Notes: a model not told the origin generated them from the letters alone. Shown: positions 42,217-53,537, counted from the stretch's first letter. The stretch is 64,000 nt of DNA from Dehalococcoidia bacterium (GCA_050011565.1 JBEKIW010000001.1:677855-741854); one strand, 5' to 3'. Program-made: numbers and translations.

Positions 42217-42293
42217 GGCGCATTCGTCTAGGGGTTTAGGACGCCGCCCTCTCAAGGCGGAGATCACGGGTTCGAATCCCGTATGCGCTACCA
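42217..42293 (+). tRNA. tRNA-Glu(CTC), integration site
   Basis: GGCGCAT/ATGCGCT acceptor, CCGCC-CT-CTC-AA-GGCGG, GGTTCGAATCCC, CCA. Confidence 0.96.
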
Positions 42294-42353
42294 AACCCCC
42301 TTCGTTAGATTCAATTTTTGTCCTTTATGTCAAATCTGCTAACAATCTGCTAA

Positions 42354-43517
42354 TTACAGGTCCCGCCGCTTCATTATTTCGTCAAATTTTCTGGCCGCTT
42401 CCTCGTCCAGGCCCGGCATGACGTGAGAATAGATATCCGCGGTCACATCAATGCCTGAGTGCCCTAACCTTTCAGATACCACCTTTAAATTAGTGCCGGC
42501 TAAAAGCATTAAGCTGGCATAGGTGTGGCGGGCATCATGCAGGCGGATCCGTTTGACACCGCATTTCTTGATTACCATAGTCCAGGCCCGGGTGACTGTA
42601 TTAGGTCGAAGCGGGCCCCCCTTAGATGTGCAAAATACCAAATCGCTATCGCCTTTTCTCTTGCCAAAAACCGTATCTTCCATTTTCTGAGATTTAAAAT
42701 GCTCTTTAAGAAGCAAAGTCAGAGAGGTTGGTATGGCTATTGACCGCCGGCTTGTCTTTGATTTCGGTTCGGCAAAAATGTACGTGCCCCCTTTGAGCTG
42801 GTGAAGGCCACGACTTATAGCGATACGGCCGTGCTGCAGGTCTATGTCGGTCCATTTCAAGCCCAGGAGCTCGGAGCGGCGCATTCCGGTGTAAAGCGCG
42901 GTGCAAAACGGTACATAATATGGCGTGTCTTTGGCCGCTCCAAGAAACTGGTTTATATCGTCCTGGGTCCAGATTTCCATTTCCTTGCGCATGACCCGAG
43001 GCAGATCAACCTTATCGGCTACGTTTTGATTTAACAGGTCTTTTTTAACCGCTGTCTGCAGCGCCTTATGAATAACCGAATGGTGAAACCGGACCGTATT
43101 AGCTGAATCTTTACCCTGGCCGCGGCCCCTGGCCATGATCATGTCGTAATGCTGTCTTAGGTGCGCCGCCCGGAGCTCGCTTAATTTAACATGGCCGAAT
43201 GCCGGAATAAAATAGGTTTCGATGATCCCCTGGTAACGCTCGAGGCTGCGCTGTGACAGTCTGTTTTTACAATAATCGTCAAGCCATTCCCGGAGATATC
43301 CGGCTACCGTCTTCTTGCCAGAATCAGGAAAACTGCCGCGGTCGATGCGCTGCAGTTCGTCTCTTAACCGGCGCTCAGCGTCTGCCTTTGTGCCGCGGAC
43401 CGTCATCCACTTCTGCCGATATTTGCCGGTGCCCGGGTCCAGCTGGCTAACGATAATGGTATAACTGCCGGCTGCCCGCTTTTTAATGCTGCCGGTGCCC
43501 CTTGCCCGTCTCTTCAT
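42354..43517 (-). CDS. int: Tyrosine integrase (phage/ICE type)
   Basis: Likely start MKRRARGTGSI at 43517; YTGMRRSELLGL, KSK, RLHDARHTYAS, RLGHS..VTADIYSH. Confidence 0.95.
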   Translation of the reverse strand: MKRRARGTGSIKKRAAGSYTIIVSQLDPGTGKYRQKWMTVRGTKADAERRLRDELQRIDRGSFPDSGKKTVAGYLREWLDDYCKNRLSQRSLERYQGIIETYFIPAFGHVKLSELRAAHLRQHYDMIMARGRGQGKDSANTVRFHHSVIHKALQTAVKKDLLNQNVADKVDLPRVMRKEMEIWTQDDINQFLGAAKDTPYYVPFCTALYTGMRRSELLGLKWTDIDLQHGRIAISRGLHQLKGGTYIFAEPKSKTSRRSIAIPTSLTLLLKEHFKSQKMEDTVFGKRKGDSDLVFCTSKGGPLRPNTVTRAWTMVIKKCGVKRIRLHDARHTYASLMLLAGTNLKVVSERLGHSGIDVTADIYSHVMPGLDEEAARKFDEIMKRRDL

Positions 43518-43560
43518 TTCAGTGGCCTGGCCAGCCTTAGTATATCCTTTAACCTTTTGC

Positions 43561-43610
43561 TTGTCGACATTTGACGACAAGTGACGACACTTGACGGCAG
43601 ATGACGGCGA
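43561..43610. repeat. Five tandem 10-bp direct repeats over the int promoter region
   Basis: TTGTCGACAT TTGACGACAA GTGACGACAC TTGACGGCAG ATGACGGCGA. Confidence 0.85.
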
Positions 43611-43614
43611 GTAG

Positions 43615-43881
43615 TTATTTCTCAAGAAATACCTCACTACGGCTTGCTACATCTACTACAGTAGCAGCAGTTCCCATGATTACATCTTTAACTTTTAACC
43701 GGTTGTCTTTCAAGATACCGAAAATATAAGCCGCGGAGCAGCCTAACTCTTCCGCCGCCGGGTCCACACTACCGTGCCTGTTAAGCGCCTCAATAACTTT
43801 TTTGAGCGATATATTCAGCCGGCGGCGCCCTAAACCCTGGACTTTAACCTTTTCGCCGCATTTTGGACATTCAACTTCCAT
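43615..43881 (-). CDS. Small protein with CxxC motif and Fis-like HTH
   Basis: MEVECPKCG...EAL..HGSV..AAEELGCS..YI. Confidence 0.7.
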   Translation of the reverse strand: MEVECPKCGEKVKVQGLGRRRLNISLKKVIEALNRHGSVDPAAEELGCSAAYIFGILKDNRLKVKDVIMGTAATVVDVASRSEVFLEK

Positions 43882-44452
43882 TTTTCTTAACCTTCACTGG
43901 CCTTTTATGTTTTGCTTGCAAAACCCTACGGGAATTGGTTTTTCTTCGCTGGTTATTCTTAGGTGGTTTTTCTTCAATGGTTCTTCTTAGAGGGTCTGTT
44001 TTAAGCCGATTGCGGTACCTGTTTTGAGTTGATTGCCTTACTTGTTTTAAGCCGATTGCGGTACCTGTTTTAAGCTGCGGTACTATTTTAACCTGTGGTA
44101 CTGATATAACCTGCGGTACCTGTTTTAAGTCGCAATATACTGCTTGATTCTTATCCCAAATATCGACAACGCTGATTATGTGGCGAACGTGCCCCCCATT
44201 AACCTCTTTTTTTATCCGAATTAACCTCTTTTTTTTGAGTTCCTGTTTAGCGCGACACACGGTATTTTTATTCATGTGGCATATGTGTGCGAGCCGATCC
44301 TGGCTTTGCCAGCAAGAGCCCCCCTCATCTTCCCCACAGACTCTTCTGAGATGTGCATAAAGACGAAAGCCGGCAGGTGTCAGCTTCATGTCATCGACAA
44401 GATGCGGGACCTGTGTAAAGTAGCTATGGTGTCCGTTATTTTGGTCCGTCAT
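43871..44452 (-). CDS. Replication initiator-like wHTH protein with internal iterons
   Basis: FTQVP.......L....FRLY..L......CW.SQ.RLA....M..NTV.RA..EL....LI; repeated GCGGTACCTGTTTT at 43997-44130. Confidence 0.75.
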   Translation of the reverse strand: MTDQNNGHHSYFTQVPHLVDDMKLTPAGFRLYAHLRRVCGEDEGGSCWQSQDRLAHICHMNKNTVCRAKQELKKKRLIRIKKEVNGGHVRHIISVVDIWDKNQAVYCDLKQVPQVISVPQVKIVPQLKTGTAIGLKQVRQSTQNRYRNRLKTDPLRRTIEEKPPKNNQRRKTNSRRVLQAKHKRPVKVKKNGS

Positions 44453-44651
44453 ACCCGGATCCCTCAGTCTGGTTTAAAAACTTTGTAAGTTTATCCCGCG
44501 GCACCAGGATGCGCCGGCCGAGGCGCTTCACCGGCAACTTGCCTTCCCTGATATATTTGAACGCCGTTGACTTGCCAATCCCCAAAGCCGCAGCTGCCTC
44601 TTCAACGGAAAGCACCAGGCGGTCAGTATTGATATCGGTTTTATTAACCAC
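44436..44651 (-). CDS. Excisionase-family HTH_17 DNA-binding protein
   Basis: LSVEEAAAALGIGKSTAFKYIREGKLPVKRLGRRILVP. Confidence 0.88.
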   Translation of the reverse strand: MVNKTDINTDRLVLSVEEAAAALGIGKSTAFKYIREGKLPVKRLGRRILVPRDKLTKFLNQTEGSGYDGPK

Positions 44652-44813
44652 CTAGGGTATTCCTTTTCTTCATGTCTCGCCCGCTGCTACCTGCAGCGTC
44701 CAGGAAGGATATATTGATTTCCTCTAAGCTAACCGAGCTGCGCCTTAAAAGCTCGCTTGCTGTATATTTTCCTGCCATCATGCTTTTCACCCGCTCAAAA
44801 ACATTCCTGACGA

Positions 44814-45116
44814 TTATTCTTTGGCTTTACCCAGGCCCCCCCCTACCCCACGGTCCGCCACTGCCGGCGTCGGGTCAAGTATAGGTTCGATTTTGCCGTG
44901 TATCCTGGCCGATTCCTCACGTTCAAACGATACATACTGCCTTTTCAATGGTCGAATTTGAATAGAAACGCTTTGACCCAGAAACTGTCTCAAGTAAAAA
45001 TCAGCCGGCAGGACCTCAGTTTGCCCCTCGAGACGAAAACCTTCCGCGGTAACCTCGCCCCGGTATACAACTGAGCCGCGCTCTAGAATATCTTTTGCCG
45101 TGTTCCCTGCCGCCAT
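44814..45116 (-). CDS. Hypothetical protein
   Basis: 100-aa ORF co-oriented with neighbouring element genes. Confidence 0.45.
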   Translation of the reverse strand: MAAGNTAKDILERGSVVYRGEVTAEGFRLEGQTEVLPADFYLRQFLGQSVSIQIRPLKRQYVSFEREESARIHGKIEPILDPTPAVADRGVGGGLGKAKE

Positions 45117-45217
45117 ACTTTCTTAGTGCCTCAGACCTTAGTCTCTACAAAAATGATTATTCCCTTTAATCCGCTGGCTTCTTACGGCCGTTGGTGGACC
45201 TTAACAGCCCCGGGTTA

Positions 45218-45790
45218 TCACTTCAGATTTGATAAAATCTCATTTTCCTGATTCGCGATCATAACGAGCAATCCCTGGGAAACATAAGGGATATCTATCG
45301 GCTCTGCGGTCGCGCCTTCAACAAATGAGTACACAGCCTGTTTATCTTTTAAAATCTCGAGGTTAGCACCGATGAGAGCTCCCGGCGCATCCGGAGCAAA
45401 CATTCTCTTCGCTCCATTCTTTAATCTCAAATATTCGGCAGTATAGAAAGCCAGCCGCGGATAACCGTCTATCATATCTCTCAGGTCTTCATCCCCCACC
45501 ACGTCACTATAGGATTTATAGATTTTACCTTCCAAATAAGTCCCCACTTTAACGACCCATCGCATTTTTGAAGGTGGTATTTGTTCTAGCCACATGAGAG
45601 TATGAATGGCATGTATTTTTTCAAGAGTGTCTTTAGGGTAATATGCGTGCGCACCTTTCCCGGCACCTTGAGAAACAGGCTGGTCGATGAGCTCCTCTTT
45701 AGCATAATTTATCATCGTTACATTGGTAATTGCCCTATTCACCTTGCTCAACTGAGAAATAATCTCTTTGCGGCTGATTAGGTCGTTCAT
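45218..45790 (-). CDS. MerR-like HTH-containing regulator (hypothetical)
   Basis: T..T...Y.KE.LI..P...G.G.G....YP...L..I pattern; RBS AAGGAG; consensus promoter upstream. Confidence 0.6.
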   Translation of the reverse strand: MNDLISRKEIISQLSKVNRAITNVTMINYAKEELIDQPVSQGAGKGAHAYYPKDTLEKIHAIHTLMWLEQIPPSKMRWVVKVGTYLEGKIYKSYSDVVGDEDLRDMIDGYPRLAFYTAEYLRLKNGAKRMFAPDAPGALIGANLEILKDKQAVYSFVEGATAEPIDIPYVSQGLLVMIANQENEILSNLK

Positions 45791-45819
45791 TTTGAGCTCC
45801 TTATATAAATCATTACTTT

Positions 45820-45848
45820 ATTATAAACCCGCACTTTATACTTGTCAA
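45820..45848 (-). promoter_or_regulatory. Consensus sigma70 promoter
   Basis: TTGACA-17bp-TATAAT on the minus strand. Confidence 0.8.
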
Positions 45849-45999
45849 TAGAGGCGTACCAGAAATTTAAAGCTAATGAGCTGCCGGAGCAGAAAAAATT
45901 TGTCAACTTCGCTAGTTCAGAGCCGGGTAGTGTATTATTTTGAAATCTGATATCATTGAAAACACTAATGTGTTAAACCTCGAGCGGAGTTAGAATGCT

Positions 46000-46287
46000 A
46001 TGGACAAAACATATACTGAATCCGAATTACGAGATAAGTTAAGCCGAAAGACAGAACGGATAACTGAAGGATTGATTGGTCGTTTAAGGGATGATGGACT
46101 TTTAAATGACCGCCATTTCAGGGTACAAAGTAAAATTGAGCCAAATGGTTCCATAACAATAGATGGTGAACCTATCCGACAAAGCGTTCAGGAATTCGTT
46201 CACGTTCTATTAGTAGAATTTTTGAAAGAACTCCTTGTCGCCCTTTTCGAAGAAGATGGTAACTCGGACATACCCTTTCATAATTAA
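46000..46287 (+). CDS. Hypothetical protein (the only plus-strand gene called in the element)
   Basis: 95-aa ORF with GGAG RBS, divergent from the regulator. Confidence 0.55.
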   Translation: MDKTYTESELRDKLSRKTERITEGLIGRLRDDGLLNDRHFRVQSKIEPNGSITIDGEPIRQSVQEFVHVLLVEFLKELLVALFEEDGNSDIPFHN

Positions 46288-46565
46288 CTATCCTTCAATG
46301 TGTTTAGCCGTTATATTGGCTGATTACCGGGGTTTGGCAAGCCAGCCAGCGCCGGCAAAGGTGTTGAAGCCGTTTATTGCTAAAACCAAGCCCCTACGAT
46401 GCGATTTCTGAGGCATCCAGGCTTTTACCCGCCTAATTCCCCATAAGACCACCCGGCAATGGAGAGGCTGCCAATTACCTCTCCAAAGCCAGGGGCTTAA
46501 GCGAGTATATCAAGGCCCGAAGGCCGTTGATACCTTCCCCTGGTCAATTATTTCTCAGGAAATAC

Positions 46566-46871
46566 CTAAGCATCGCGGTTTAAGTCCAGGAGGCCCCCTT
46601 TGCCCTTTTTGACAGCCGGCTTCCCGATAAACGCGGCACAGCATTTTTCAATAAACTCTGCCACTGAAATACCCTCTTTGTCGGCTTGTTGTTGGCAGGC
46701 AATAAATAGCTGCTGTTTATTTTTAAATGTTTTGGATTCGCCTCGCTTGGCAAAATATGCCTCGACACAATCGGCCACAAAGCGGGCGAGTTTTTGCCCT
46801 CTCTTTATCGCCTCTAATTCGCATTGTGAATAGAGGCCGAAATTGTTAAAAAAAATAATATCTTTTATCAT
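46566..46871 (-). CDS. Hypothetical protein, possible tandem ribbon-helix-helix
   Basis: Two similar halves: A...G..LARFV..C and A..EGISVAEFI..C. Confidence 0.5.
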   Translation of the reverse strand: MIKDIIFFNNFGLYSQCELEAIKRGQKLARFVADCVEAYFAKRGESKTFKNKQQLFIACQQQADKEGISVAEFIEKCCAAFIGKPAVKKGKGGLLDLNRDA

Positions 46872-46908
46872 GCTGGTTTATCCAGGAACCGCCCAGGGCC
46901 ACTCCACC

Positions 46909-47068
46909 CCGGGCGGTCCCCCATGCGAAACGTATATCAACACCAGAGCGAATTGGTGGTGATACCGAAGTTCGAGGGCCGCCCGGATAGAACTCAGACT
47001 AAAGCTCCGGGCGGTCCCCATGCTGAACGGATATATCAACGCCAGGAGTTGGCGGTGATACCGAAGTT
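46909..47068. repeat. Two ~62-bp direct repeats, each containing a hairpin, just downstream of the capsid gene
   Basis: CCGGGCGGTCCCC..ATGC...TATATCAAC[AG]CCAG...TTGG[TC]GGTGATACCGAAGTT at 46909-46972 and 47007-47068. Confidence 0.85.
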
Positions 47069-48266
47069 AAGCGCTATGCTCGGTCAGAAGCACCAGGGCT
47101 TTATTGGACGGTTTAATAAGGTATCCGCCTACCCTTCGATACACTATGAAACCCACTAACCCGGCCTCAGCATAGAGCTCATTAAGCCGTAGTATGGTTA
47201 TCTCCGAGCGATCGAGTATGCGGTAGCCATACTGGAAGTTGCCGAAGACCGCGATCACACCCTGGGTACCGGTCAGGTCTTCCATGTCATCCTGGTTATA
47301 CACAGGGTAGCCAAGGAATGTAGGCGGGGCACCGGCTATTAGAGACGGCTGCCAGAGGTAATTTCCGTAGTAACCGTCTGCTACCTCGGCCCGCAGCTTA
47401 CGGATCTCTAATTCTAACGTAGAGTTAAAAACCCAGGCTGAGCCCTGCCGGTACTTGGGCGGGACTTCATAGATGCACTGTAGAAAGTCATCGATAGTCA
47501 CCACCCCATCATCTGCAGTGGCCTTAGTGGCCGCCACCAGAGTCGGGTCTACGGTTATGCCGTCAGGTTCGTTTTCACTATGCCCCCTACCTTTGAGGAA
47601 GCCATAGTTTTCCTTTTCAGCTATTGCCCGGCCAAAGGAATCGGACATAAAGTTAACCAGGTCATAGTCTGAGTCTTCGAGCTCATCTCTGCCTACCTTA
47701 ACGAGCCCGGAGAGGTCCTCGATGTATTTGTAATCCTCCGAGGGCGCGGGCGTGGCTTCGGTGATTGCAGCTCCGGTTTCGAGCTTACCCCAGTTCACTT
47801 CGGCCTCGGTTATGTCACGCACCAGTATTCGGTCCTTAGTAATCGTGCGTTGGCTGGCGAGCTGGCGGACTACTACAAATTTAGCCAAGCTTCGCTGCAG
47901 TTCCTCTTCGATAGCCGGCGAGACCAGGTAGCCGCCGGTAGAATCCTCTACAAGCGCCCTTTCCTCGTCCTGAGTGATGCCGGTTTTCCCTTTGCGTATG
48001 TAGTTTAGGAAAGCTCGGTCCTCATCGGCGAGATAGATGCCTTTTCCACCTCTTCCACCACCGGGTGCGGTAGCCATTTCCAGGCTGTTCTGCATTTTTC
48101 CCTTGTCTATGCGAACAGTCAGGTCATCGACCTCAGCTATTAGGTTTTTGTATTCCGTGTCCTCACCTTCAGACATGCCCCTATGCTCTGCATTGTCAAG
48201 AAGCTCACGAGCTTTTGCAAGAAGCTCCGTTCTTTTCCTTTGCATTGCTGGAATATTTTGTAACAC
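47067..48266 (-). CDS. HK97-family major capsid protein
   Basis: Coiled-coil delta domain, RAF..YIR.G, GGYLV, F.KG.G....PDGI, GNYLWQP, T.LGYPV, FGNF..GY.I.DR, GLVGF...RRVGG; RBS AAGGAGG. Confidence 0.93.
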   Translation of the reverse strand: MLQNIPAMQRKRTELLAKARELLDNAEHRGMSEGEDTEYKNLIAEVDDLTVRIDKGKMQNSLEMATAPGGGRGGKGIYLADEDRAFLNYIRKGKTGITQDEERALVEDSTGGYLVSPAIEEELQRSLAKFVVVRQLASQRTITKDRILVRDITEAEVNWGKLETGAAITEATPAPSEDYKYIEDLSGLVKVGRDELEDSDYDLVNFMSDSFGRAIAEKENYGFLKGRGHSENEPDGITVDPTLVAATKATADDGVVTIDDFLQCIYEVPPKYRQGSAWVFNSTLELEIRKLRAEVADGYYGNYLWQPSLIAGAPPTFLGYPVYNQDDMEDLTGTQGVIAVFGNFQYGYRILDRSEITILRLNELYAEAGLVGFIVYRRVGGYLIKPSNKALVLLTEHSA

Positions 48267-48536
48267 TTTGATACCTCCTTAGTTTTTAAACAAAAGTTTT
48301 CACTCGCCTGAGCCACTGTTAGCTCAAGAGCTCCCCTTGAGACCAATTCCTCAGCCTCAAGACAAACCCCCACGCTCCCAAAGGAATCAAGCTCGTCTGC
48401 CGGCAACCAATTCGACCTGGCTCCGGCCTTATTAAGTTAGTGCCCGAGGAGTACAGAACGGCTTGAACAATATCATGGAAAAAAAGAGCCGCCTGCCTAT
48501 TCAGGGCATTTATTCGGACAGACTCCTATCAAATAT

Positions 48537-48692
48537 TCACCTTGATTTTCTCGATCTTCTTTCCTTAACAAGCTTTTTATAAGCCTGAAGAACAGCTGAT
48601 AACCCACCATGCCGCGATTGTCTGTACGTTCCGTTAAGAATATGTTGCTCAATGGACTTTTTGTTGCTTCCTCCCGAACCAGGTCCCCCCAT
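48537..48692 (-). CDS. 51-aa ORF resembling the N-terminus of P27-family (HK97-type) terminase small subunits
   Basis: Manual translation MGGPGSGGSNKKSIEQHILNGTYRQSRHGGLSAVLQAYKKLVKERRSRKSR*, with RBS AAAGGAGGT; below the ORF-track cutoff. Confidence 0.6.
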   Translation of the reverse strand: MGGPGSGGSNKKSIEQHILNGTYRQSRHGGLSAVLQAYKKLVKERRSRKSR

Positions 48693-48884
48693 TTAATTTA
48701 CCTCCTTTTCTGGTTTTGCTGCCCACGGTTTTGCTGCCCATGGTCAAATCGGGTTTTTTTGTCCGAATTAACCGGAAAATCAGCCAGCAAAAGTTTTGCT
48801 AACTGCTTTATTTCCCCAGTTTTTGAAGCTAAATTACCCATTTTGCCACCATATATTAATTTCTATCTTCATGATTTATCTTCC

Positions 48885-48966
48885 TGTTTTGCTGGCTGTG
48901 TGTGCGCGAAACTGCCCACTCGGTTCTGAAGCTTTGAAGCTGCAGCGATTTGATGGGGCTATCCCT
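48885..48966 (-). other. Putative cos packaging region
   Basis: Minus strand GGGATAGCCCCATCAAATCGCTGCAGC...AGAACCGAGTGGGCAGTTTCGCGCACAC...GCAAAA resembles the GGG..AAATC.CT...ACCG...CGCG pattern recalled upstream of terS in HK97-like cos phages. Confidence 0.5.
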
Positions 48967-49004
48967 GGTCAAATTATTTCTTGAGAAATACCTTACGATC
49001 CTAA

Positions 49005-49124
49005 TTACCTGGCCGGCCGTGTTCTCCGTCTTTTTATCTTCGGCCTCTCCGGCAGTTCAGAGTATAGCCAGCCACAAAGAACCAGACACCAGATTAAGAA
49101 ACAGAATATAACTATTATTTCCAT
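49005..49124 (-). CDS. 39-aa single-TM peptide with basic tail
   Basis: MEIIVIFCFLIWCLVLCGWLYSELPERPKIKRRRTRPAR*; RBS AAGGAAGG. Confidence 0.45.
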   Translation of the reverse strand: MEIIVIFCFLIWCLVLCGWLYSELPERPKIKRRRTRPAR

Positions 49125-49150
49125 AAGTCACCTTCCTTTGCTGACAGTCT

Positions 49151-50299
49151 TTAGACATAAGATTTCCTTAACTGTTGCAGGCGATAAAGTTCTTTGGCTA
49201 TTCGCTGGACGTCGGCCTCTTCCCTGACTATCAGTTGAGAAACGGTAATATTAACTCCGGAGCCGCCGGCCGGTGATATAACTTCACCACCATGGACCAT
49301 TGCAAGTTGAGGCTCCCCGATTGAGCCGGGGACTATACCGCCGGATTGATAACCCTGAAGATGAGCTAGATAATTCTGCTGGCTAATCTCGGCCTGGCTC
49401 ATGCCACCAGTGGAAACCGCTCCACCGCTTTCAGAACCTGGACTTGCCCACAATTGGCTGAGTCCACCAGTAAACCATGATGGCATATTCAAGATTTTCG
49501 ACAAATCCAGACGGCTTAATGTACTATTCAGTTTATTCATCCAATCGACAGCTTGCTTAATATAGCCTACAAGCGTAGCCAGGTCTCCAATGAAGGATGT
49601 CAGACTAGGGAAAACGGTCGCTGCAAGTGCACCAGTTAATCCCTGCCAGGCGGTGTGGAGGTCTTCAGTAGCCCCTTTGGTATCTGCAAGAGCAGTTACT
49701 TGAGCATCGCTGAGAATTCCTAACTCGTGTAACCTGCTAATATAGGTGTCCAAGTTACCTATCATAGGTAGCAATTCTGTACCGGAACGCCCAAAAATCT
49801 CCATGGCCAAAGCGGCGCGTTGAGTTGGGTCAGGAATATTATTTAATGCCCGAGCAATCGCTTTGAATTGGCTTTCCGGGTCCATTTGTTGCAGGTCATT
49901 GAAGGATAATCCTAATTGCTGGAATGTTCTTACAGCTGTCACCGAACCATTCTCTGCATCAAGCAAAACCCTGGCGAATTGCTGCATCCCTACTCGCACC
50001 TGGTCAAGAGATGAGCCCCCTTTTTCTGCCGCGTAGCCTAGTTCCTGAAGTGCCTGAGTAGACATACCGGTGCGTATGGCTGTATTTGTAAGGTCCTCGC
50101 CCAGGTTCATAAGATTAGACGCGATTGCCCCCATGCCTGCTACAACAGCAGCCATGCTCATTTCGGGTAGAAGCCCCCCTAATAAAGAATTCAGCTTGCC
50201 AATAGAACTTTGGGCTGAGGACTGCAGGTCCTTCATGCCTTGCTGAAATTCTTCAGTTTTGGCGCCTATGACAACAAAAAGTTTGCTTAATTCGTTCAT
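49151..50299 (-). CDS. Short phage tail tape-measure-like protein (382 aa)
   Basis: N-terminal L.V.IGA....F..G; core TGMST.ALQEL.YAA and D...RAALAMEIFGRSG.ELLP; C-terminal Y.SGGIVPG..G.P.LA.VHGGE...REEADV..IA. Confidence 0.85.
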   Translation of the reverse strand: MNELSKLFVVIGAKTEEFQQGMKDLQSSAQSSIGKLNSLLGGLLPEMSMAAVVAGMGAIASNLMNLGEDLTNTAIRTGMSTQALQELGYAAEKGGSSLDQVRVGMQQFARVLLDAENGSVTAVRTFQQLGLSFNDLQQMDPESQFKAIARALNNIPDPTQRAALAMEIFGRSGTELLPMIGNLDTYISRLHELGILSDAQVTALADTKGATEDLHTAWQGLTGALAATVFPSLTSFIGDLATLVGYIKQAVDWMNKLNSTLSRLDLSKILNMPSWFTGGLSQLWASPGSESGGAVSTGGMSQAEISQQNYLAHLQGYQSGGIVPGSIGEPQLAMVHGGEVISPAGGSGVNITVSQLIVREEADVQRIAKELYRLQQLRKSYV

Positions 50300-50574
50300 T
50301 TAATTCCCCTTTCCTTTTTAAAAAGGCGGAAGGCTTTCTTTAGCCCTTTTACTACTTCGCGGTAATGTGAAATAAGAAGCTTCTTTGCTTCTTTAATGGT
50401 CAATGCCGGATCATCCTGGACAAGCCCTCCCCATAACAAAACAACGGCATGATATGGCAGACTTGATATTTCAGGCTTCAATTTAATGCCGGTTGTCTCT
50501 TCAAATAGACCCAAGGTTATAAGATTGAGGCGGAAGCGCCGTTTTTTGTCCAGTTTCATTGTAACTTCTGCCAC
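50296..50574 (-). CDS. Phage tail assembly chaperone-like protein
   Basis: KLDK.R..RL....L..FEE.TG...LLWGGL...DP.LT......L; stop overlaps the tape-measure start (ATGA). Confidence 0.7.
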   Translation of the reverse strand: MAEVTMKLDKKRRFRLNLITLGLFEETTGIKLKPEISSLPYHAVVLLWGGLVQDDPALTIKEAKKLLISHYREVVKGLKKAFRLFKKERGIK

Positions 50575-50637
50575 TTTTAAATCTCCTCAAGGCGGCCTGT
50601 TTGACCGCCCCTAATTATTTCTCAAAAAATATCTTGG

Positions 50638-50907
50638 TTACAATTGCCGGTTTATCGCTTTGGCCACGCCGTAGACATGCTGCCCCTTTAAACTGTCAGA
50701 ACCAGTAAATTTTAGTAGCCCTGGCTTTTTTGTAGCCAGCTCGTTAACAAACAAAGTGTCCCCGGCTTTCGGCGCCGCTGCCGGGTCGAAAACAACGATA
50801 TCGCCCTCAAATAAAACAGGTTCCGCGCAATGCCCTACACATCTGACGGCAATTAGTGAATGGCCATCTGCCAGGTCTGCCGGTATGAAAGTGGTCCCTA
50901 TAGTCAT
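50638..50907 (-). CDS. Stand-alone S24 (LexA/UmuD/CI C-terminal) peptidase-like domain
   Basis: AVRCVGHCAEP.L.EGDIVV.DP...P..GD...V......LK...YGV; no HTH. Confidence 0.65.
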   Translation of the reverse strand: MTIGTTFIPADLADGHSLIAVRCVGHCAEPVLFEGDIVVFDPAAAPKAGDTLFVNELATKKPGLLKFTGSDSLKGQHVYGVAKAINRQL

Positions 50908-51011
50908 GTTCCCCCCTTGCTAATTAAGTTGCTAATATACTGCAAAACACTAGATAGCACAGCGAAGTTTTGAATACTACAGAAGCGTATGTAGGTTTTA
51001 CTGGTCTAGGT

Positions 51012-52859
51012 TCAAATCCCTAGAATCCCGTATGCGCTACCATTCATAACTTTTCGGCACTTAGTTGCTAACTCACATTCCTCATCGGCTTGTGATTTAC
51101 TTAATTGCACCTTATCACTTTGGATATCTGATTGCACCTGACCAAGATTTAGCTGGCAGCTTACCCTCATAGTCTTGAGATCTTCGGAGGGATAAACCTT
51201 GATGCCCAGCTTGGAGATAACGTCCAGTCGCTCTTCGAAGGTGGCTCCATCGAGATTGCTATCCCTCAGTACCTTCAATTCCTCTCTTAATGCCTCCAAG
51301 TCGGTGCAACCAGAGACCGAGTCCTCTAGTTCTTCTCTGAGTCGTTTAATCTCTTTTTCCGCTTTGGCTATCGTCGCCCGGTGTTCGTCGATACGCATCT
51401 TGGCTTCGTACCGGTTGTACAGTCCACCCTCGAAGCCCTCTTGAACCTTAGTAATTCTGGCCTCCGCCTGTGATGTCTTCAGCAACTGAAGTCTGAGTAG
51501 CTTTTCCACATTCTCGTCCTGCAATAGTTCCGTGGAGAGCTGTTGCTCAACCCAGGCATCAGTCCTAAGCCACGAGCAAATGTCCTGCCATACCAGTTGA
51601 TCCCATGTGCCAGGGACGAATTTCCTGTAATTGCAGGGGTGCTCAACCCAAGGCTTGAAGTATCGGGAACAGTAGTAGTAGACACCATTCAGGTGGCCCG
51701 CACGTCTAACCACCATTGGCTGGCAACACCTGGGGCAATATATGCGATTGCGAAGTAAGGCCTGGATTGTCTTCCCCTGCTTACCTCTTCCCCTTCCCCT
51801 CTGGGCAATAGTAGCGTTGGCCTTTTGCCATAGTTCTTCACTCACCAAGGTTGGAACTTTGAATTCTACCCAATCATCCTTGGGTTTAGGTCTGAGAAGG
51901 GTCCTCTTAATCTCTGCAGTTATGTCAACTAGAGGTCTATCGGGATTTGGCACTCTGGCATTGGCGTTATAATAGTGAGTCCCTGTGTAGCAGTGATGAC
52001 GGACGATGGCAGAAACCCCGGCAGGCGACCATTTGCCACCATCTGGGGCCTTGATACCCATCTCATTCAGTTTGTTGGCCACCCAGAAGAGGCTGAGTCC
52101 TTCACTGCCAACCCAGGTAAAGATCTGAATCACAACCCAGGCTGGACTCGGATAAATGAGTTGACCGTCAGGATCAGACTCGTCAAGTTCCCACCAGGCA
52201 CGCTTGATGATAACCTTGCCGTCAGGGGCTATCTCCCTGTCTGCCTTGTAGCGATAACCGTAAGCGGCGCGGCTTGCCGGCACCATGCCTTTGAGTACCC
52301 TTCCTATGTTGCCCGCCCTGGCGCTGTCTCTGTTTGTTTGGACCCTGAGAGCATTGGCCTTAGCCATGATCAGGCGGCTGGTGCTACTGGCCCAATCCGC
52401 TCCACTAGGCACATCGCCGAAGACAAACTCCACACCATAGTGCGTGCATTCCCTCTCGAAGATAAGCTGCTGTCCCGGATCCATTGTCAGCCGTCCCTGC
52501 AAAGGTATCAGCACTCCCTGAATCCTACGCTTGGCTATTAACTCCTTCCTGAGGAACGCCATATTTTTCCGGTCAAGGTATTCGCTGCTCTCATGGTCAA
52601 CAACAATATATTCCTGCGGCACGGTTAAGGCTCTCTGCTTCGCCATGCGTGCGCAGGTAAGCAGATACTCAGGTATGCGATTGTTTTGCGCCTGCTCCAC
52701 CAAGCTCTGCCGGACGTAAGCCGCCCACCAGGTAGGCTTCATAAGGTCACAGCTTTTGACGCCGAAACCATCCTCATACCCTGCTGCCTTGGCTGCTTCG
52801 TCGATGTAACCATCCAACTGATCTCGGCTCATAACCTCTGTCTCTTTGTCATGCTTCAT
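51012..52859 (-). CDS. Large serine recombinase (resolvase + recombinase + zinc ribbon + coiled coil)
   Basis: AAYVRQS, GRL, AAYGY, Y.G, P.LVSEELW, LL...IYCPRC...YYYC. Confidence 0.92.
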   Translation of the reverse strand: MKHDKETEVMSRDQLDGYIDEAAKAAGYEDGFGVKSCDLMKPTWWAAYVRQSLVEQAQNNRIPEYLLTCARMAKQRALTVPQEYIVVDHESSEYLDRKNMAFLRKELIAKRRIQGVLIPLQGRLTMDPGQQLIFERECTHYGVEFVFGDVPSGADWASSTSRLIMAKANALRVQTNRDSARAGNIGRVLKGMVPASRAAYGYRYKADREIAPDGKVIIKRAWWELDESDPDGQLIYPSPAWVVIQIFTWVGSEGLSLFWVANKLNEMGIKAPDGGKWSPAGVSAIVRHHCYTGTHYYNANARVPNPDRPLVDITAEIKRTLLRPKPKDDWVEFKVPTLVSEELWQKANATIAQRGRGRGKQGKTIQALLRNRIYCPRCCQPMVVRRAGHLNGVYYYCSRYFKPWVEHPCNYRKFVPGTWDQLVWQDICSWLRTDAWVEQQLSTELLQDENVEKLLRLQLLKTSQAEARITKVQEGFEGGLYNRYEAKMRIDEHRATIAKAEKEIKRLREELEDSVSGCTDLEALREELKVLRDSNLDGATFEERLDVISKLGIKVYPSEDLKTMRVSCQLNLGQVQSDIQSDKVQLSKSQADEECELATKCRKVMNGSAYGILGI

Positions 52860-53245
52860 CTCTTCTCCCTCCTCCTGAACAATGATTCCTGAATCCTCTG
52901 CAGGCGCTGCGCTTCATCGTTGGAAAGCCTCAGTTTACCTCGGCACAGCTGGCACTGTTCTAGAATCTGCTTCCAGTTGTCCTTCCAGCTTTCATCCTCA
53001 CATTTGCCTCTCATCCATGGTTCGGGCTGGCTCGGCACCAATCGGCGGTCAAACCCCAGGGGACAATTGGCAAGTCCCTGCTTCACTTGATGGAAAGCGA
53101 CCGGACAGCCCTGGATGCCGGGGAATTCCCAAAGCGTCACGGTCTCCCCCTCTGGAATGCCCAGAATCTGTCTCGCTAATTCTCCGATGCCCGTATCCAC
53201 TTTTTCACCCAGTCTTCCGCTTTTTCTGGCGTCCTTTTCCTTCAA
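52856..53245 (-). CDS. Hypothetical Cys-rich protein, translationally coupled to the recombinase
   Basis: ATGA overlap with the recombinase; CP...CP...C...CQLC. Confidence 0.55.
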   Translation of the reverse strand: MKEKDARKSGRLGEKVDTGIGELARQILGIPEGETVTLWEFPGIQGCPVAFHQVKQGLANCPLGFDRRLVPSQPEPWMRGKCEDESWKDNWKQILEQCQLCRGKLRLSNDEAQRLQRIQESLFRRREKR

Positions 53246-53537
53246 CAGCCTCTATCAGTATGTCCAAAGCTCGATGCAGGGCTTCAAATTTCTTGATAGC
53301 CTCGCCAAAGTCCGCAATCGCATTCCCTTCGATAGCTCTAGCTAACCTCGTTTCAACATCAACGCCCAGAATCTCCAGGCGGTGCAGGTCAGCAAAGAGA
53401 CTTACACTCCGCCGTATAACCTCGGAAACACTGCCATAGCCGAACTCATCACGGAGCCATTCCATGTCTTGGTGCTGCTCCGCTGGCAGCCTTAAGGCAA
53501 TAAGCTCATCATGCTTAGTTACTCTGCCCATCAACAT
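53205..53537 (-). CDS. Ribbon-helix-helix-like regulator
   Basis: IALRLP.......E.L....GY.SVSEVIR; TTGACA-17-TATACT promoter at 53541-53569 immediately upstream (near-leaderless). Confidence 0.65.
   Translation of the reverse strand: MLMGRVTKHDELIALRLPAEQHQDMEWLRDEFGYGSVSEVIRRSVSLFADLHRLEILGVDVETRLARAIEGNAIADFGEAIKKFEALHRALDILIEAVEGKGRQKKRKTG

Follow-up and report, generated by a model that had tools for sequence, protein, structure and literature searches.

Why does one short palindrome stand at the gene borders of a small integrative element, and what might read it there? The question is raised by a stretch of 64,000 nucleotides (nt) from a Dehalococcoidia bacterium (GCA_050011565.1, JBEKIW010000001.1:677855-741854), the whole of which is called the window here. 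Within it an element of approximately 8.75 kb (42294-51042, bounds set by the attachment (att) repeats of a tRNA-Glu gene) carries four copies of a palindrome of 16-22 bases, starting at 43615, 46548, 48974 and 50615. The same palindrome recurs in related phages and, as we tentatively suggest, it may be a DNA site for a dimeric regulator.

A sequence-only reading of this DNA had reported the four copies in one orientation, and a scan of the window confirmed both their positions and their orientation. As written, all of them lie on the + strand, with no mismatch in the copy at 43615-43634, one in that at 46548-46567, and two each in those at 48974-48993 and 50615-50634. They are listed here on the - strand, as read along the coding strand:

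43615..43634, - strand: motif copy 1, AGGTATTTCTTGAGAAATAA on the coding strand; overlaps the final codons and stop of an 88-aa open reading frame (ORF), about 100 nt upstream of the start of int (ATG 43516)
46548..46567, - strand: motif copy 2, AGGTATTTCCTGAGAAATAA on the coding strand, centre CCTG; abuts the TAG stop of a 101-aa ORF (46566-46871)
48974..48993, - strand: motif copy 3, AGGTATTTCTCAAGAAATAA on the coding strand (CTCA); precedes the capsid block and follows, at about 11 nt, the stop of a 39-aa hydrophobic ORF
50615..50634, - strand: motif copy 4, AGATATTTTTTGAGAAATAA on the coding strand, T replacing C in one arm; 4 nt past the stop of an 89-aa ORF and 41 nt before the GTG of a 92-aa ORF

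All long ORFs here lie on the - strand, in the order 89-aa ORF, then 92-aa ORF with the tape-measure gene and the 39-aa ORF, then the capsid block, then a regulation-replication block, and finally int; these are five transcription blocks with four junctions, and one copy of the motif stands at each junction. The positions previously assigned to the copies (ahead of int, just after the 46566-46871 ORF, ahead of the capsid block and ahead of the tape-measure block) were as found here, and "module boundaries" is a fair description of them, "gene ends and short intergenic gaps" being the more general one. The labels "cos", "terS" and "TAC" that had been attached to neighbouring features received no confirmation from family searches. 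Copies 2 and 3 have CCCTGGTCAA in common on the + strand, so that the upstream sequence they had been said to share is real. On the coding strand, copy 2 is followed by TTGACCAGGGG and two G+C-rich hairpins, and copy 4 by a small G+C hairpin, a ribosome-binding site (RBS) and the GTG of the 92-aa ORF. On the coding strand copy 3 is centred on CA, which is flipped with respect to the other three copies, while the flanks of all four keep one orientation.

Shuffling of the window gave an expectation of 0.05 copies, and none of the 100 shuffles reached the 5 matches of the scan, the fifth of which is copy 3 seen on the opposite strand and no separate site. In the host genome (1,996,460 bases) the degenerate pattern returned these four sites only and its reversed control none, and a mismatch scan likewise returned four sites at two mismatches or fewer. 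The 16-bp core, TATTTCTTGAGAAATA, has one extra, exact genomic copy in an intergenic gap at C1:499402, approximately 150 nt upstream of a gene for a 297-aa zinc-ribbon protein and approximately 450 nt upstream of an AAA ATPase gene, which is followed by a 190-aa ORF; a local look at the surrounding genes showed no prophage near it. The earlier remark that the motif had not been noticed outside the element thus holds for the full motif at up to two mismatches throughout the 2.0 Mb and needs correction for the core. Frequent occurrence throughout the genome, which would have spoken against a specific role, was not observed, as there are five core copies in 2.0 Mb and four of them are inside the element. 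In another genome of the order (G376, locus L174), a motif copy also lies approximately 150 nt upstream of a double-zinc-ribbon gene, as at C1:499402.

The anatomy of the motif was counted over 55 independent contexts, collected with a search pattern that requires a pyrimidine-purine (YR) centre; unconstrained counts were made separately. The core, TATTTCT-YR-AGAAATA, consists of 7-bp arms around a centre that is CA/TG in 40, TA in 13 and CG in 2 of the 55. It is often extended, and since the outer flanks prefer AAT (T at -1 in 69 and A at -2 in 65 of 110 half-sites) the full consensus becomes AATTATTTCT-YR-AGAAATAATT. The copies in the window have AGG (or AGA) for AAT on the upstream side and therefore look oriented, and a copy in L104 has the same asymmetric form. 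The innermost arm pair is complementary in 53 of the 55 contexts, though unable to pair in an RNA hairpin, and the predicted hairpin itself (-1.6 to -3.9 kcal/mol) gives way to a fold of lower energy in copies 2 and 4. In L075, three copies show an identical change in both arms (C-G to T-A), which makes a symmetric variant. A search of Rfam 15 gave only tRNAs and sub-threshold chance matches, and no RNA family for the motif.

Relatives were sought through the capsid gene and through the motif. Among 82 loci around capsid homologues (80 from metagenomes and 2 from IMG/VR, 716,571 bases), TATTTC-N4-GAAATA occurs exactly in 10, with the extended arm in all 10, and the free centre is always TTGA, TCAA or TTAA, which sets the arms at 7 bp and the centre as a pyrimidine-purine step. 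At one mismatch or fewer these loci gave 18 matches, whereas five palindromes permuted as controls gave 5, 3, 0, 0 and 2. In IMG/VR, 30 stretches matched TTATTTCTYRAGAAATAA exactly, of which 16 belong to contigs with a G+C of 0.45-0.59; the other 14 (G+C 0.22-0.39) were set aside as possible chance matches or another family and are excluded from the context counts. The contigs of normal G+C have portal, protease and tail genes in common with the capsid-derived set, so that searching by motif and searching by capsid lead to one and the same phage group. Three copies are present in provirus G401, two in G403, two in G402 (plus one on L051) and six within 32 kb on the prophage contig G485:C1. Besides, a different integrative element with a homologous att arm carries one copy in G452, a genome of the host's genus. 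The two ends of G402 match L051 at 100% identity, and 950 nt of L051 (1516-2465) connect them, so that the G402 phage is circularly closed at approximately 32.6 kb, though its record is rated 63% complete.

Across the order, the 16-mer is present in 17 of 151 genomes and its reversed control in 0 of 151. A class-wide search with the asymmetric form of the window, GGTATTTC, gave two single matches in 400 other genomes, which is the control level; the symmetric core was the right query. A single-protein capsid search of genome contigs found nothing, and an alignment-based one found four Dehalococcoid(al)es loci in metagenome-assembled genomes and distant actinobacterial prophages, none of them with the motif. 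At seven seemingly chromosomal sites (L159/L178, L165, L163, L167/L173, L168/L176, L172 at 4991, and L174) the motif is followed after about 5 nt by an RBS and then by "M(A/S)RKPTGR", the decayed start of a helix-turn-helix (HTH) gene that is intact in G401, and one seemingly chromosomal site abuts a tRNA fragment; we read all of these as probable mobile-element remnants. Other such sites lie between ordinary metabolic genes, without such explanation. A second near-palindrome, TTTAGC-GGA-GCTAA(G), was seen beside the motif in L163 (approximately 1517-1535), L172 (approximately 1170-1197) and L164 (approximately 1471-1495), and presumably resembles the KorB operator TTTAGCSGCTAAA. The motif is kept in relatives, as the sequence-only reading had required, and the copies in the window appear to represent a cis-element that is common, throughout the lineage, to the phages, prophages and satellite-like elements of Dehalococcoidales-type hosts.

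In these records the motif is placed mostly a short way past a stop codon or a short way ahead of an RBS. The stop codon of an ORF of at least 60 aa overlaps the motif or lies within 25 nt of it at 32 of 54 sites, compared with 24% of random positions in the same loci, a count inflated by the TAA of the motif itself; by row count, the stop is 0-22 nt upstream in 25 of 54. A Shine-Dalgarno sequence plus start codon (SD-plus-start) lies within 35 nt at 10 of 54 sites (random, 11%), and a stop and an SD-plus-start occur on one strand at 7 of 54 (random, 1.8%). By a crude open-frame test, 43 of the 55 contexts are outside long open frames. The copies of G401 occupy the gap between the minor-head and protease genes, the gap between the head genes and the head-tail adaptor, and the region past the last tail gene, and in L054 and L076 the motif stands between portal-sized and protease-sized ORFs. 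G402 has a copy 65 nt past the integrase stop, and the copy of the same phage on L051 precedes by 6 nt the ATG of an HTH ORF, which a terminase-like ORF of 438 aa follows directly. In G485 the motif occurs where the tail genes end and the integrase region follows, flanks a helicase gene at either end, precedes a promoter-like TTGACA and, in one instance, falls within a ParB-like gene.

To the question of what reads such a site our answer is tentative, and we hold it at less than even confidence: the palindrome may be bound by a dimeric regulator that is supplied in trans and would insulate or silence gene blocks, in the manner of dispersed phage operators. Action at the DNA level is favoured because the sequence itself is conserved and not its pairing alone, because the inner pair remains complementary almost throughout, because the centre is always a flexible YR step, and because the hairpin is weak. 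A symmetric, dimeric, sequence-specific protein would recognise the palindrome as double-stranded DNA and, as there is one copy at every block junction, the putative bound protein would keep the transcription of one block from running on into the following one, as a stop or as an insulator. All five blocks would thereby come under one factor, used by full-size related phages as well, and such a common factor would couple the element to a helper by the logic of the dispersed operators of temperate phages. The change in both arms of the three L075 copies fits equally well a homodimer with shifted specificity and compensatory RNA evolution.

Several observations weigh against a regulator of this kind. 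When all ORFs were clustered, no protein family was common to all motif-bearing records, the most widely common ones being HTH_17 and the integrase. The binder candidates of the element (the 88-aa ribbon-HTH, HTH_17, 190-aa MerR-like and 101-aa Arc-like proteins) have weak or generic matches, and ParB/Noc, the best family guess from the site sequence, failed two co-occurrence tests. The site is identical at 16 of 16 positions across phages whose capsids are only 40-50% identical; repressor-operator pairs tend to diversify, and an identical site is unusual for them. In addition, 12 of the 55 contexts are possibly coding-internal by the crude open-frame test, and the plainly coding copies (G402, L035, L103 and L104) encode FISQEII in a head-tail connector gene. 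Several sites are 2-17 nt upstream of an RBS inside co-directional operons, and three of the four single-arm C-to-T variants (copy 4, G402:21162 and L051:2176) give a G-U wobble on the local coding strand. The gene calls in the relatives, moreover, are our own mechanical ORFs and not the output of a gene finder. The operator proposed in the sequence-only reading fits the conserved palindrome common to the element, satellites and full-size phages and the symmetric variant of L075; no binder was found.

A broader form of the same idea seems doubtful to us. In it, the palindrome would be an "address label" of Dehalococcoidales phages and their parasites, and one trans factor, either the helper's or the element's, would read the gene-block borders in both. 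The satellite might then share in the activation, silencing or insulation of its helper, or might titrate the helper's factor with the copies that it carries, and in a sharper version the site would define a third ParB/Noc specificity class (A at position 1, T at position 6) that serves a KorB-like dispersed silencing in phages.

The main rival to the dimeric regulator is a signal at the RNA level, which we consider serious though rather improbable. The motif would function in polycistronic mRNA between the stop of one gene and the RBS of the next, either by folding into a short AU-rich hairpin or by serving an RNA-binding protein or nuclease as its operator, and would set processing, stability or downstream translation. 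An RBS and start follow it at 2-17 nt in G485 (4/6), L075 (3/3), L076, L054, L013 and L104, and the excess of sites with a stop and an SD-plus-start on one strand would suit an intercistronic position. The three wobble variants and the U-A pairs of all three L075 copies trace a compensatory path from C-G through G-U, and the deviant base of copy 2 sits in the would-be hairpin loop. The nearest positional precedent is given by the start-associated sequences (SAS) of Cluster K mycobacteriophages and their forms extended by inverted repeats (ESAS) (PMC3203893). Nevertheless, the hairpin is marginal and, in copies 2 and 4, not the preferred fold, the sequence is conserved beyond pairing up to innermost bases that could not pair, and an SD-plus-start within 35 nt is found at only 10 of 54 sites, compared with 11% of random positions. 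Copies 1-3 of the window are 100-700 nt from the next start, the motif is without an Rfam match, and the variant L014:1702 is a C-A mismatch on the local coding strand and not a wobble.

Recombination between copies, which the sequence-only reading had offered as a means to shuffle modules, appears unlikely. The shared 16-22 bp would be a linker for the exchange of gene blocks by short-homology or site-specific recombination, with capsid and tail blocks as cassettes. The arrangement of the window invites this explanation, as the capsid block lies between copies 3 and 2 and the tape-measure block between copies 4 and 3, and the centre of copy 3 is flipped within flanks of constant orientation. 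Gene order does differ among small elements (tape-measure, motif, capsid in the window; capsid, tape-measure, motif in L012; tape-measure, capsid in L013), copies in phages fall between functional modules, and the PeSL cassettes of T4-type phages (promoter plus terminator) provide a precedent (PMC2839356, PMC4122927). However, in contigs of three peat-metagenome DNA runs (two of them possibly from the source sample), which would miss rare forms, the element was intact, and neither joints between copies nor excised or inverted forms were seen. The sole clean case of gain or loss, L104 versus G402 and L103, consists of 22 nt with the motif in place of 9 nt between a stop codon and an RBS, in a conserved gap whose flanking genes are 86-90% identical to those of G402 and L103 and hence show no mosaic breakpoint; rather than marking the border of a cassette, the motif is therefore gained or lost as a small intergenic change. 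The element has no nucleotide similarity to any fetched locus except in the capsid gene, and so offers no junction to compare. The tyrosine integrase is the only recombinase inside the att repeats, a large serine recombinase being outside them, and the authors describing the dyad repeats of Cluster O mycobacteriophages found few of them at rearrangements (PMC4351075). The proposal is thus left without direct support.

We consider it quite unlikely that the motif is a loading site of the parS/NBS kind, at which a ParB-family CTPase clamp of a helper phage would coat, silence or partition the satellite, as known for KorB and N15. The comparison starts from the published Noc-binding site (NBS), TATTTCCC-GGGAAATA, and from parS, TGTTTCAC-GTGAAACA (PMC7383237). 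The half-site TATTTCT(T/C) agrees with NBS at 6-7 of 8 positions and with parS at 5-6 of 8, in the same 16-bp palindromic geometry and with differences at one of the two specificity positions described in that source (PMC7383237). G401, G403 and G485 encode proteins with ParB_N and HTH_ParB domains, and the motif is in or near each of these genes: exact and inside the gene in G485, exact and approximately 420 nt upstream in G403, and with two mismatches approximately 100 nt upstream in G401. By our own mapping, the recognition helix of the G401 protein seems to depart, at the specificity positions, from ParB as well as from Noc. Neither a canonical parS (two mismatches or fewer) nor an HTH_ParB gene is present in the host. 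Within the order, HTH_ParB is present in 13 of 151 genomes and the motif in 6 of these 13, compared with 11 of the 138 without it, although related genomes are not independent; KorB offers a precedent for dispersed silencing (PMC11790492).

On the other hand, at two mismatches or fewer the motif is absent from a further 15 HTH_ParB loci in the order, which together span 148,059 bases, and it was not found within 10 kb at any of six IMG/VR loci of the same ParB subfamily (52-63% identical, with the same altered helix), and these six have no perfect 16-bp palindrome in common. Family searches found no ParB in the satellite and its small relatives and no ParB_N in G402, whose record is 63% complete, and 11 of the 17 motif-positive genomes are without HTH_ParB. 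The conserved flanks of the motif reach beyond 16 bp, and the resemblance to ParB/Noc sites was spotted after the fact. Given the negative co-occurrence tests and the satellite's lack of ParB, this explanation is kept as a minor rival only. A phage system with a ParB-dependent T-dioxygenase is not relevant here, since the ParBs in question have no DNA-binding domain (PMC13229309). Chromosomal ParABS seems largely missing from the order, given the rarity of HTH_ParB and the absence of parS from the host.

Least probable among the readings weighed is a packaging signal, recognised by HTH proteins of the small-terminase type and copied by the satellite so that the helper would package it. The L051 copy just before an HTH ORF and the 438-aa ORF would suit it, the latter being, as we take it from its Walker-A motif, a large terminase; at the seven chromosomal sites the motif precedes an RBS and the decayed HTH start, and copy 3 is 282 nt upstream of a 51-aa ORF (48692..48537). 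The N-terminus of that ORF is presumably small-terminase-like, and the 88-aa ORF that ends in copy 1 seems to have a similar HTH segment. Yet these HTH ORFs have sub-threshold generic HTH matches only and none to a terminase-small-subunit family, the 2-6 dispersed copies per genome, some of them in replication modules, are unlike the known pac/cos arrangement, and the idea draws largely on sequence signatures. Other explanations can be dismissed briefly: chance by the shuffles, the genome scan and the permuted and reversed controls; a host regulon or a genome-wide repeat like the repetitive extragenic palindromes (REP), with tens to hundreds of copies, by the copy number (five core copies in the host, 0-6 in other genomes of the order); an intrinsic terminator by the weak, A+T-rich stem with one G-C pair and no U-tract; and a sigma-70-type promoter because only copy 4 overlaps a 9/12 match, with none in the same register at the other three.

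The element that carries the copies has the following further features:

42217..42293, + strand: tRNA-Glu (CTC), into which the element is integrated; the left att repeat consists of its final 20 nt (42274-42293)
42354..43516, - strand: tyrosine integrase (int)
43539..43612, - strand: five GTCGTCA-like repeats, then a promoter-like TCGACA-17-TATACT, between copy 1 and int
43615..43881, - strand: 88-aa ORF with a Cys-x2-Cys ribbon and an HTH-like segment; weak Pfam matches only, a candidate DNA binder, its last codons being copy 1
43871..44452, - strand: HTH_36 replication-initiator-like protein, with iteron arrays inside the gene (43936-44129)
44436..44651, - strand: 71-aa HTH_17 (excisionase/MerR-clan) protein
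45218..45790, - strand: 190-aa protein, MerR-like lead only
46000..46287, + strand: 95-aa ORF, convergent with the capsid block, no family match
46566..46871, - strand: 101-aa ORF, weak Arc-like (ribbon-helix-helix) match; its stop touches copy 2
47067..48266, - strand: HK97-type major capsid protein
49151..50299, - strand: 382-aa tape-measure-like protein
50638..50907, - strand: 89-aa ORF, weak S24-peptidase-like match; first gene inside the right att repeat
51023..51042, + strand: right att repeat, 20/20 identical to the 3' end of tRNA-Glu; overlaps the 3' end of the neighbouring serine-recombinase ORF

The true start of int is probably ATG 43516 rather than the GTG at 43637 of the mechanical ORF, and the GTCGTCA-like repeats upstream of it (43555-43612) could be integrase arm sites or another operator. 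The iteron arrays, with repeats of 14-nt and 23-nt periods, probably mark the origin. Homologues of the HTH_17 protein are present in L012, L014, L017, L021, L027, G402, the element of G452 and G485. A 100-aa ORF lies between the HTH_17 and 190-aa genes, and a perfect TTGACA-17-TATAAT (45820-45848) stands ahead of the latter. Past copy 2 on the coding strand (46460-46547), a long imperfect stem (CCAGGGG...CCCCTGG) around a UUCG-looped hairpin and a further G+C hairpin of 7 bp were seen; the two resemble a terminator that acts in both directions, placed where the capsid block meets the convergent 95-aa ORF. Between copy 3 and the capsid gene there are approximately 570 nt without a long ORF and then a separate 88-aa ORF. 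Family searches found no portal, protease or large terminase in the element, which makes "satellite-like" a fair label. The small contigs L012, L013 and L014 have the same capsid and integrase families in different gene orders and may, together with the element, make up a Dehalococcoidia family of satellites that encode a capsid. Immediately beyond the right att repeat lie a large serine recombinase of 615 aa (51012-52859), whose last codons are overlapped by the 20-nt tRNA-Glu fragment, and two small ORFs (to 53537); this region (51012-53537) may be an older island at the same tRNA.

Dispersed phage repeats are known from few cultured systems, and the function of several is still open. Here the same palindrome is found in uncultured phages, in a minimal capsid-carrying integrative element and in remnants, across a host order that is hard to grow, and being common to all of these it is a ready marker for such mobile elements in Dehalococcoidia metagenomes. 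It also offers a handle on the wiring between satellite and helper, at a size (a 22-bp oligonucleotide) that suits pull-down. If the binder were encoded by the helper, this would be a case of a satellite adopting the cis-regulatory code of its helper; if the signal acted as RNA, it would be a new intercistronic element.

With regard to known systems, the motif belongs to a known kind, the dispersed conserved repeats of phage genomes, together with the Cluster O dyad repeats, the stoperators and the SAS and ESAS repeats. Stoperators occur in many copies in short intergenic gaps at gene ends, where the bound immunity repressor stops elongation, and they are asymmetric 13-bp sites for a monomeric repressor of the gp71 type. 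The "conserved inverted repeats" of phiC31, the dispersed centromeres of N15, boxA of P1 and the VirB sites can be compared as well. As a precedent for dispersed operators, the stoperators of Cluster A mycobacteriophages (L5/Bxb1 type; PMC9283540) resemble the motif in having many copies at gene ends and in short gaps (four at four junctions in the window and 32 of 54 related sites, the flanks in the window being oriented with respect to transcription). They differ in that the site here is a palindrome and no repressor family is common to the motif-bearing records.

There is a close likeness in form to the 17-bp dyad repeat of the Cluster O mycobacteriophages, TGTTCGGNNNCCGAACA; those who described it expect that a dimeric protein binds this DNA and that its role is not promoter control (PMC4351075). 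Both have invariant inverted arms of 7 bp and a short variable centre, and are dispersed between ORFs or near gene ends; the Cluster O repeat is absent from the host genome, lies at rearrangements in few cases and has a function still open (PMC4351075). Its sequence is another one, however, its spacer is 3 bp instead of 2, and it numbers more than 30 copies per genome against 2-6 here; it is confined to one phage cluster, whereas the motif described here spans phages, satellite-like elements and decayed remnants.

With parS and NBS the motif shares a 16-bp palindrome of two 8-bp half-sites, with TATTTC in common with NBS and TxTTTC with parS (PMC7383237), and it differs from these sites in having T, not A or C, at specificity position 6, in being dispersed rather than clustered near an origin, and in an element without ParB. 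The SAS/ESAS of Cluster K are likewise short repeats a few bases upstream of the starts of some genes that belong to different families, and they are described as absent from the host and of open function (PMC3203893). The SAS are asymmetric and contain the RBS, unlike a palindrome that stands upstream of the RBS and is start-associated at about one-fifth of its sites. The PeSL of T4-type phages, also repeated intergenic motifs at cassette borders, have been proposed for regulation and modular shuffling (PMC2839356, PMC4122927); they combine an early promoter with a stem-loop terminator, whereas here there is no promoter consensus and no recombination was seen. Altogether, what is new in the present case is that the same site recurs across diverse phages, a capsid-encoding satellite-like element and probable remnants throughout one host order.

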